DNA of 64,000 bases from the NCBI RefSeq assembly GCF_017348835.2, contig NZ_CP071375.1, one strand, 5' to 3'. The position numbers are program-made. Of this stretch, positions 51,301 to 54,300 are shown piece after piece (the stretch's first letter is position 1; each line of letters begins with the position of its first letter). This stretch comes from Escherichia coli. GTDB taxonomy: Bacteria; Pseudomonadota; Gammaproteobacteria; Enterobacterales; Enterobacteriaceae.

Positions 51301-54300
51301 GCTGCCGCTGCCGTTTTCTGGGTTTGCTGAACTTGCTGAGTTTGCTTTTGTGCCGCTACCGGAGCATTATCAGCAGCCCATACAGTTGAAGATGCCAGAA
51401 TTGCTGTGACCATCGTGGCCATAATTAAACGTTTCATACTTACCTCATTCTTTAACAGTTTTAGAAAACGCCGCCATCATATTGGGTGAGCATGAAATGA
51501 GAAATCAGAGAGCAACGGTCATTTTGAAAGGGTTATCTTACAGTTGTAGTTATTATCGCAAGAAGTATTTTAGTCTTACAATTGTAGGAATATGCTTCCT
51601 GTCACAGAGAACTATTCTTATGTACCACAAAGAGATGTCATTTATTATATCGATGTAAATATTGATTAATTATATGTAAATACAGCCATAACATCGTACA
51701 TTCTCAGTGAACCATTTTCAGGATAACTTTCTATGAAAGTAAACTTAATACTTTTTAGCTTATTTTTATTGGTCTCTATTATGGCATGCAATGTTTTTGC
51801 ATTTTCCATTTCTGGTGGTGGAAGTGAGAGGAGCTATAAAGAGACGGAAAAAACATCAGCGATGACGACAACTCACTCTACAAAAATTCAGCCATCACAG
51901 GCAATTTTGTTTAAGATGAGAGAAGATGCGCCACCATTAAACCTCACAGAAGAAACCACGCCCCCTTTTCCGACAAAGGCGAATTATCTTATTCATCCTG
52001 TGCGATAGCGTCTGTCACCTGGCAGGTGAACAATCATGTCTGATGCTGATGTGAACACCTGCCCAAATGAGCCATCCTGACCCACTATCGCCTGCCATAC
52101 CCCACCATAAAGCGAATCATCAAGCCACAAGCCGGGGCAAGAAACATAAATATCCCCGTCACCAGTTCATTACCGCCAGTTAACCACATGGTGAAGTAAT
52201 AAATGAGTGCAGCGAGGATCACCATGCCGAAGAAAGAAGAGACCGCCGATACCACGTTCAGTACCTGACCGATGTATCCGCTTACGCAGACAATACACAG
52301 GGCGAGAAACATCCATAAATAAATCATAGCTCAACCTCCTGCCGCGCTAAAAAACCTGTAACTTCAGTCACTTTAATAGTAAGACAATCCTTACCCTCTG
52401 GCAATTTTTGCTAAGCATCAATGAAAACAGCATGTTAAATGCAACACTATTGCATGCGGAAAATTTTTTACTTTGCACGATTAATAATCAGTAGCTGAAA
52501 GCAGTCAGCCAGTGATAAAGTAGAGCCACCGCATTCATGCTCCTCGTGGTTATGTCCTGACTAGTCTTTACACTCTTTACAGGAACCATTGTCGTACATG
52601 ATGGCCCAACCAATTGAGTGTACCGCTGTCGACATGGAATCTTCTGCGATACAACAATTCGTATCTACAGAAGGTAACTATGTTTCCACAATGCAAATTT
52701 TCCCGCGAGTTTCTGCATCCTCGCTACTGGCTCACATGGTTTGGGCTTGGTGTACTCTGGCTTTGGGTACAGCTTCCTTATCCTGTTCTCTGCTTTCTCG
52801 GCACGCGTATTGGCGCAATGGCGCGACCATTCCTGAAACGGCGTGAATCTATCGCCCGTAAAAACCTGGAACTTTGCTTCCCGCAGCATTCTGCGGAAGA
52901 ACGCGAGAAGATGATTGCCGAAAACTTTCGTTCACTCGGCATGGCGCTGGTAGAAACCGGCATGGCGTGGTTCTGGCCCGACAGTCGCGTACGTAAATGG
53001 TTTGATGTTGAAGGGCTGGATAACCTTAAACGCGCACAAATGCAAAATCGCGGCGTAATGGTTGTCGGCGTCCATTTTATGTCGCTGGAACTGGGCGGCC
53101 GCGTGATGGGACTTTGTCAGCCAATGATGGCTACCTATCGTCCACATAATAATCAGCTGATGGAATGGGTGCAGACCCGTGGTCGCATGCGCTCTAACAA
53201 AGCGATGATCGGCAGAAATAATCTGCGCGGCATTGTCAGTGCACTGAAGAAAGGTGAAGCGGTATGGTTTGCTCCCGATCAGGATTATGGTCGTAAAGGC
53301 AGCTCCTTCGCGCCGTTCTTTGCGGTAGAAAATGTCGCCACAACCAATGGCACCTATGTTCTCTCCCGTCTCTCTGGCGCAGCCATGTTGACCGTAACGA
53401 TGGTAAGAAAAGCGGATTACAGCGGATATCGTTTGTTCATCACCCCAGAGATGGAAGGCTACCCGACAGATGAAAATCAAGCCGCTGCCTATATGAACAA
53501 GATTATCGAGAAAGAGATCATGCGCGCACCGGAGCAGTACCTCTGGATCCACCGTCGCTTTAAAACGCGCCCGGTGGGAGAATCGTCGTTATACATTTAA
53601 CAAACTGCTCTGACTCTTTACCTCCTCACATAAGCCATAATAACCTCATGGTTTTTATGGCTTTTTTCTTAAGGTTTTTTCCTTCGCTGAATATCTAATT
53701 ATTACCGTCAGAAATTAAACTGTCGCCGATATGAGACACCTGTAAGTTACTAAAAGTAAATAAGAAAATGCCTCTTGTCTCGTTTCAGTTTTAGGCGTAC
53801 ATTAGCGCCGTCTCGAGCAGTTTAGCTCAGAATTCTGGGGTGATGCCCACGGTAAAATACAGGACTTTTAAGGTCGTTTTGCCCGGTGTCAACTCACTGT
53901 ATCAGGTGTAATGAAGTCATTCAGGCGTAACAGCAATTACGCGGAGAGATGTAAAGTGAAATATTTCTTTATGGGCATTTCTTTTATGGTCATCGTTTGG
54001 GCCGGTACTTTTGCCCTGATGATCTAAAAGCAAACTGTGCAATGAAAAACAGGAGCCATCAGGCTCCTGTTTGCATTTCTGAGGTCGGTGTTTATTCCGC
54101 GTTTTCGTGAATATGTTTGCTGCTGGCGGGTAGTAAACCGTCGGCACGGAACATCGCTTTAATCCCACGAATCGCCTGACGAATACGGTCGCGGTTTTCA
54201 ATCAGTGCAAAGCGCACATGCGTATCACCATAGTCGCCAAAGCCGATCCCCGGCGAGACACAAACCTTCGCTTCGTTAAGTAATTTCTTGGCAAACTCCA

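Follow-up and report, generated by a model that had tools for sequence, protein, structure and literature searches.

Small hydrophobic peptides of Escherichia coli

The type I toxin genes tisB, shoB and zorO encode small hydrophobic peptides, and their mRNAs have a weak start codon behind a long, structured 5' UTR. Genes of this type are typically patchy in their distribution and present in several copies. In ypdK, as in tisB, shoB, zorO and ibs, a tiny hydrophobic ORF follows a long, highly structured leader. In contrast to type I toxin mRNAs, ypdK is encoded in single copy and has order-wide fixed synteny, and no antisense or divergent antitoxin RNA was found for it. The peptide can also be compared with AcrZ, KdpF, CydX, MgtS and MgrB, beside which it is listed in a screen of small membrane proteins (PMC10470546, Table S1). 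YpdK resembles these proteins in having fewer than 50 residues, one predicted helix, a small gene of its own and the signature of purifying selection. It differs from the AcrZ/KdpF/CydX type in that no candidate partner is encoded in an operon with it: The sole conserved neighbour of ypdK is alaC, a gene for a cytosolic transaminase on the opposite strand.

ypdK was reportedly found by Hemm et al. in 2008 using comparative genomics and models of ribosome binding sites, and the tagged protein is said to have been detected. Since this survey of small proteins, the gene has reportedly been part of the K-12 annotation. Thomassen et al. cite it among the 18 small membrane proteins of Hemm et al. 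and give its coordinates (PMC3009722). ypdK is already catalogued in E. coli; the first-pass annotation, which pointed out the ORF from the DNA, was correct but reported nothing new. The gene itself brings no novelty, and the NCBI pipeline names it automatically. The locus is of interest because ypdK encodes a conserved small membrane protein of E. coli, and comparative data may aid functional work. Such data comprise eight invariant residues, the linkage to the alaC 3' end, a fixed GTG, a conserved promoter and a leader outside Rfam. Taken together, we assign a probability of roughly 0.88 to the reading that the ORF described below is a genuine protein-coding gene, ypdK, which is transcribed separately.

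The ypdK gene and its occurrence in E. coli

The window, i.e. the whole stretch of DNA analysed, comprises 64,000 nt of an E. coli contig (NZ_CP071375.1), and all positions refer to it. The gene, its ribosome binding site and its two neighbours are located as follows:

53956..54027, plus strand: ypdK CDS, GTG start, 23 sense codons, TAA stop; one predicted transmembrane helix
53943-53946, plus strand: Shine-Dalgarno core GGAG, 9 nt 5' of the ypdK GTG
52680..53600, plus strand: lpxP CDS (RefSeq annotation transferred from identical records), neighbour 5' of ypdK by local synteny, in Escherichia only
54092..55330, minus strand: alaC (alanine transaminase), convergent with ypdK, conserved neighbour

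Translation of 53956-54027 on the plus strand yields VKYFFMGISFMVIVWAGTFALMI, read from the codons GTG AAA TAT ... ATC TAA. The coordinates, the GTG start and the length of 23 codons that had been proposed for this ORF are all exact. The proposed identity with ypdK of K-12 was borne out, too: A RefSeq CDS lies on identical bases, and the peptide passes the NCBIfam model NF033437. The RefSeq feature on exactly these bases in both strain Santai and K-12 MG1655 is ypdK, 'membrane protein YpdK' (b4680 / WP_010723117.1). With the equivalog NF033437, the peptide scores 57.5 bits (cut-off 30, E = 9.4e-16), and its residues 1-23 align to profile positions 1-23. Compared to K-12 YpdK (b4680), the 23-residue sequence, the location with lpxP on one side and alaC on the other, and the annotated GTG start are all identical, and there is no difference. 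The window stems from a non-K-12 E. coli and, over this stretch, is 100% identical to strains such as O157:H16 Santai. Searches with the peptide found no family in Pfam and no chain resembling it in the PDB.

Of 5426 complete E. coli genomes, 5422 contain a match of at least 95% identity to a 501-base query around the ORF, with a median of one place per genome. The features beneath these matches were lpxP, ypdK and alaC. In a second genome search, sampled evenly along the ranking, all 25 listed records carried the ypdK annotation. The exact peptide occurs on at least 1000 contigs of the protein collection, where every source name is 'membrane protein YpdK'. As a crude check on chance, both strands of the 64-kb window were scanned for start-defined ORFs with a length of 16-50 codons, which gave 2125. 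Sixteen of them match or exceed the hydrophobicity of ypdK, and only ypdK has both a Shine-Dalgarno core and a Kyte-Doolittle hydropathy that averages at least 1.7.

Conservation and coding signature across Enterobacterales

Using AlaC as anchor, the alaC neighbourhoods of 80 Enterobacterales species were collected, and ypdK was located therein by tblastn with the peptide. In 75 of the 80 species, the ORF lies just beyond the alaC stop codon in convergent orientation. One locus is uninformative, as its sequence ends before the ypdK position, which leaves 75 of 79 informative species. By tblastn, the ORF is absent from Erwinia endophytica, a Symbiopectobacterium, Lonsdalea and a record titled Pseudomonas resinovorans. 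An lpxP-like gene is found 5' of ypdK in just 18 of the 75 species. In the other 57, the upstream gene is variable and often divergent. The linkage that is conserved for ypdK is the one to alaC, not that to lpxP. This refines the earlier placement of ypdK between lpxP and alaC: It holds for E. coli, and the alaC side is conserved (75/79), whereas the lpxP side applies to 18 of 75 species only.

The start codon is GTG in all 75 species. The ORF is 23 codons long in 54 of them and 24 codons long in the other 21, and it is preceded at a spacing of 6-10 nt by a Shine-Dalgarno core, which is GGAG in 74 species and GAGG in one. Column entropy at codon positions 1, 2 and 3 amounts to 0.58, 0.18 and 1.13 (75 species), and the pairwise pN/pS of the ypdK frame is 0.27. 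The peak of variation at third positions together with this ratio shows that selection acts on the ypdK frame at the protein level, as is typical of a translated peptide. The two other frames behave differently: The +1 frame contains stops in 67 of 67 distinct sequences, and the +2 frame, with a pN/pS of 2.25, lacks stops for the sole reason that no stop codon has the form NNT. Eight residues of YpdK are invariant in the 75 species (V1, Y3, M6, G7, S9, G17, T18 and F19), and K2, W15 and M22 are nearly invariant. This yields the motif (M)KYxxMGxSxxxxxWxGTFxxMx. Conservation of the frame across Enterobacteriaceae had been suggested beforehand as a check on the ORF, and the check was passed with 75 species, a constant GTG and Shine-Dalgarno sequence and a pN/pS of 0.27. 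The comparison strongly supports purifying selection across Enterobacterales that acts on the peptide sequence and not on the RNA alone.

The start codon was additionally compared with that of ypdA, a neighbouring gene that also starts with GTG. Among 64 ypdA orthologues, 50 start with GTG, 12 with ATG and 2 with TTG. Hence, GTG is retained in 75/75 cases for ypdK versus 50/64 for ypdA (Fisher p = 8e-6). With ypdA as the one control gene, the invariant GTG of ypdK suggests selection for a weak start.

Promoter, transcription unit and terminators

The gap between lpxP and ypdK measures 355 nt and contains a conserved upstream block, a promoter and a structured leader. The elements that delimit transcription are:

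53632..53672, plus strand: Rho-independent terminator of lpxP, hairpin 53632-53663 plus T-run
53682..53774, plus strand: conserved non-coding block 5' of the ypdK promoter, presumed regulatory DNA
53775..53803, plus strand: candidate sigma-70 promoter, -35 TTGTCT, 17-nt spacer, -10 TACATT
54047..54075, no strand assigned: common terminator of ypdK and alaC, stem 54047-54057 / 54062-54072

In an alignment of 36 Enterobacteriaceae, the region from 53682 to about 53845 is strongly conserved, to the same degree as the ORF. Within it, the block 53682..53774 has a column identity of at least 80-95% in 36 genera or species, whatever gene lies upstream. The block includes an inverted repeat, TGTC-N10-GACA, at 53721-53738. 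Comparison by eye of this repeat with the consensus sequences of CRP, LexA, PhoB, CpxR and OmpR revealed no convincing match.

The candidate promoter was found by its conservation; with 8 of 12 matches, it is below the 9-of-12 threshold of a simple scanner. Its -35 hexamer at 53775-53780 is TTGTCT, and most genera have TTGTCA. The -10 hexamer TACATT at 53798-53803 is followed by the GC-rich AGCGCC. Both hexamers are conserved while the 17-nt spacer varies. Of 74 species searched, 72, including Erwiniaceae and Serratia, carry a box GTA[CAG]ATTAGC 5' of the GTG, at a distance of 49-196 nt and mostly 120-165 nt. A tiling-array study detected a plus-strand transcript, U00096.2 2494795-2494997, that overlaps ypdK (2494943-2495014) (Thomassen et al., 2010; PMC3009722, file S3). 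This transcript is up by 1.06 log2 units after UV (PMC3009722). Its 5' boundary corresponds to window position 53808, 148 nt 5' of the GTG, which is where the candidate promoter should initiate transcription. From conservation and this boundary, we infer that the hexamers at 53775..53803 constitute the ypdK promoter.

Both terminators were located by a search for inverted repeats; a simple scanner had missed them owing to its threshold for loop length. The arms of the lpxP terminator comprise 14 nt and are 93% complementary. A 3' end mapped after lpxP by Term-seq at K-12 position 2496632 corresponds to 53667 (Adams et al., 2021; PMC7815308, entries in supplementary file 1). The hairpin downstream of ypdK, AAACAGGAGCC/GGCTCCTGTTT at 54047-54072, has 11-nt arms with 100% complementarity, contains an A-tract and a T-tract within its stem and is located 19 nt from the alaC stop codon. 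The same study has an entry for a plus-strand 3' end at K-12 2497040, i.e. window 54075, designated 'primary ypdK, antisense alaC' (Adams et al., 2021; PMC7815308). A minus-strand 3' end of alaC was not seen among the entries consulted in its Term-seq table (PMC7815308). Downstream of the ypdK stop codon, 74 of 75 species have a GC-rich hairpin, with 38 different 5' arms, and it is the predicted structure of this hairpin that is conserved rather than its sequence. The hairpin with A- and T-tracts, the convergent genes and the mapped plus-strand 3' end classify the element at 54047..54075 as a bidirectional Rho-independent terminator.

The termination of lpxP, the variable upstream neighbour, the conserved box and the transcript ends from the tiling array and Term-seq thus support the view that ypdK is a transcription unit of its own of about 270 nt. 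That the ORF is flanked by the terminator of lpxP and by a bidirectional one, and that it may be expressed independently, had been proposed. The former is confirmed by the two hairpins with Term-seq ends at 53667 and 54075, and the latter is supported by the lpxP terminator with its mapped end, the conserved box, the array start at -148 and the Term-seq end at 54075.

A structured leader with covarying helices

Between the 5' boundary of the transcript and the GTG lies a leader that folds into four helices:

53808..53955, plus strand: ypdK 5' leader, about 146 nt, structured, helices P1-P4
53811-53831, plus strand: P1, 5'-terminal hairpin
53837-53846 with 53886-53895, plus strand: P2, long-range helix (RNAalifold)
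inside P2, plus strand: P3, further folding of the P2 interior in most species
53926-53930 with 53937-53941, plus strand: P4, hairpin ending directly 5' of the Shine-Dalgarno sequence (RNAalifold)

The leaders of 37 species were aligned with MAFFT, and the consensus fold was calculated with RNAalifold. The P1 hairpin is present in all 37 species with differing stems, among them GAGC/GCUC, GGUGA/UCACC and UUGCGC/GCGCAA. P2 and P4 display compensatory changes, with double changes at 7 of their 13 pairs. In these two helices, 94.6% of the cells are paired compared to 25-54% in controls with the partners slid by 1-3 columns. Their covariation score is 0.444 versus 0.05-0.13 in the slid controls (maximum 0.127), and it is reached by none of 500 shuffles. 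The folding energy of the 279-nt E. coli ypdK transcript is -94.5 kcal/mol (z = -4.2).

A comparison with Rfam 15 gave no relevant match at E <=1 within 52000-56000, and nothing reached the gathering score in 20 related loci. This conserved, covarying leader appears to be undescribed in the literature searched and in Rfam. Tentatively, it might act as a cis-regulatory RNA of a kind not yet described, or as the RNA part of a transcript with two functions. In that event, it would set the dosage of YpdK post-transcriptionally.

Alternative pairing of the P2 3' arm with the Shine-Dalgarno sequence and the spacer was considered as a masking switch; the result was weak and, in most species, no better than chance. 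The corresponding duplex has a mean energy of -10.0 kcal/mol, with a mean z versus shuffles of only -0.7. The P2 3' arm is the best leader partner of the Shine-Dalgarno/spacer region in 19 of 37 species, and a z of about -2.4 is found in the Citrobacter group only.

Three parts of the locus alone were without a description in the literature searched: the structure of the leader, the conserved promoter block and the invariant GTG.

Alternative readings of the locus

Could the locus be mainly an RNA gene, i.e. a small regulatory or dual-function base-pairing RNA with an incidental or secondary ORF? The leader of about 146 nt is conserved like the ORF and covaries, and the transcript of about 270 nt is short and ends at a strong terminator, as would be expected of such a gene. 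However, the ORF clearly bears the marks of protein-level selection: It varies at third positions, its pN/pS is 0.27, its length is fixed, and both its start and its Shine-Dalgarno sequence are invariant. Furthermore, no Rfam family matches. Since selection acts at the protein level, a purely non-coding reading is excluded, and we regard an RNA gene with a subordinate ORF as unlikely, although the transcript may have a second function as an RNA. A 23-aa hydrophobic peptide encoded behind a long structured 5' UTR with a weak start codon is also what one would expect of a membrane-damaging type I toxin, whose mRNA would be silenced by the leader and an antisense RNA. This interpretation is improbable: ypdK is single copy, its place next to alaC is fixed in 75 of 79 informative species, and it was found in 5422 of the 5426 genomes of E. 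coli. Furthermore, no convincing antitoxin was found: The repeats in 53600-54100 are merely two-copy and 10-13 nt long, and the single promoter-like site on the minus strand, 53726-53698, is directed away from ypdK.

The two remaining readings concern the borders of the gene. As ypdK is located on the same strand as lpxP, 355 nt downstream, it might lack a promoter of its own and simply be a distal segment or the 3' UTR of the lpxP mRNA. Yet, a 3' end is mapped at the lpxP terminator, lpxP is missing upstream in 57 of 75 species, where the neighbour is often divergent, and both a conserved promoter-like box and a transcript boundary at -148 are present. Expression by lpxP read-through is therefore very improbable. 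The true product could also have 38 residues and begin at the in-frame ATG 53911 with MKSFRRNSNYAERCKVKYFF, for the extended frame is open in the E. coli window. In 30 of 75 species, however, an in-frame stop is found two codons 5' of the GTG, and in-frame starts further upstream are scattered and not conserved. The extension would fall into a stretch of the leader that shows little conservation and would overlap the P4 hairpin. Of the 38 residues, the NCBIfam model matches just the final 22, and the sole Shine-Dalgarno-like sequence, AGGTG, is just 3 nt away from ATG 53911. The 38-aa version, which is not conserved across the 75 species, was rejected and hardly deserves credence. A separately transcribed gene that encodes the 23-residue peptide is the reading that we prefer.

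YpdK as a probable membrane peptide

With a mean hydropathy of 1.73 and hydrophobic residues from 4 to 21, YpdK falls into the class of small single-helix proteins, which have at most 50 residues and a single hydrophobic helix of sufficient length to cross the bilayer. That the ORF encodes a short hydrophobic membrane protein, as had been assumed, agrees with the predictions, namely this hydropathy, the TMHMM helix and the RefSeq name 'membrane protein YpdK'. Presumably, the peptide forms a single transmembrane helix that is inserted in the inner membrane. The invariant basic residue 2 suggests an N-in topology, whereas TMHMM predicts the opposite, one helix with N-out orientation (PMC10470546, Table S1). 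In the same study, RseP did not cleave HA-MBP-YpdK (PMC10470546).

A clustering of conserved residues on one helical face is not supported by the data (conservation moment 0.07, permutation p = 0.70). The conserved residues are spread around the helix, and therefore, a simple helix-packing interface on one face is not supported.

By analogy, YpdK would most likely serve a larger membrane protein, either as a small accessory subunit or as its modulator. The first steps of the following course of events are strongly supported: Transcription starts from the promoter about 150 nt upstream and yields an RNA of about 270 nt that is composed of the leader of about 146 nt, the 23-codon ORF and the terminator common with alaC. 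Translation initiates at the GTG preceded by GGAG. The resulting 23-residue peptide, nearly all of which is one hydrophobic helix, would then be inserted in the inner membrane and might there join or modulate a larger membrane protein like AcrZ, KdpF, CydX and MgtS do. The invariant weak GTG and the structured leader could hold the dose of YpdK low and under control.

The adjacent sRNA candidate tpke70

In the same intergenic region, tpke70 is annotated as an sRNA candidate of E. coli, and in the K-12 annotation it adjoins ypdK. The conserved upstream block at 53682..53774 was considered as a possible tpke70 gene. This was ruled out, because tpke70 is located on the opposite strand, antisense to lpxP. 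It overlaps neither ypdK nor the ypdK leader nor the conserved upstream block. At its beginning, the 436-nt sequence used for Tpke70 corresponds to the lpxP terminator in reverse complement, after which it extends antisense into lpxP.

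Conserved DNA upstream of ypdK

The non-coding block at 53682-53774, located 5' of the candidate promoter of the small membrane protein gene ypdK, is as conserved as the ypdK ORF itself among the 36 Enterobacteriaceae compared, and this conservation is independent of the upstream gene. The block comprises a GTAAGTTAC palindrome as well as an inverted repeat, which in most genera has the form GTGTCG-N8-CGACAC. It is probably a region bound by a regulator. It also carries a promoter-like site on the opposite strand, just upstream of the sRNA candidate tpke70.

53721-53738: inverted repeat TGTC-N10-GACA within the conserved block
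53726-53698, minus strand: promoter-like site GCGACA-N17-AATAAT inside the conserved block
approx. 53233-53668, minus strand: sRNA candidate tpke70

tpke70 is annotated in K-12 as an sRNA candidate, with a sequence of 436 nt (supplement of PMC6172242). Its 5' end corresponds to the lpxP terminator read on the opposite strand, from where it runs antisense across the lpxP 3' end.

Candidate promoter and translation initiation region of ypdK

The candidate core promoter (53775-53810) has a -35 box of the CTTGTCA type immediately preceded by an A/T-rich stretch, and a GC-rich AGCGCC separates the -10 box from the transcription start. In this it resembles promoters shut off by ppGpp/DksA, such as rrnB P1. 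A TT[TC]AGGCGTA motif occurs twice: One copy (53790-53799) overlaps the -10 box, the other (53920-53929) constitutes the 5' arm of the hairpin preceding the SD sequence. Both positions are conserved; the twofold occurrence may be due to chance.

Between the SD sequence and the GTG start codon, a GATG is conserved. In E. coli, its ATG forms a 'start-stop' pair with TAA (53949-53954, GGAGAGATGTAAAGTG). This ATG instead opens the +2 frame in most other Enterobacteriaceae (GATGAAAC). That frame is stop-free across the ypdK ORF only because its codons are NNT. As a control for start-codon turnover only, the aligned first codon of ypdA (pyrS; window position 55707, GTG in E. coli) was counted in 64 species from loci L003-L082, yielding GTG in 50, ATG in 12 and TTG in two.

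Lineage differences around ypdK and alaC

Citrobacter (L005-L009) has an extra divergent ORF of ~200 aa, ~300-1000 nt upstream of ypdK. As an insertion, this ORF separates lpxP from the conserved block upstream of ypdK, and its N-terminus is signal-peptide-like. In Buttiauxella brennerae (L041) and Serratia (L071/L078/L082), ypdK lies 0.7-1.7 kb past the alaC stop codon compared to ~60-150 nt elsewhere; therefore, an insertion is located between the convergent pair there. L076 (record title: Pseudomonas resinovorans DSM 21078) lacks ypdK downstream of alaC. The AlaC encoded there is ~91% identical to E. coli AlaC (best segment); transfer or mislabelling may account for this odd placement in a Pseudomonas.
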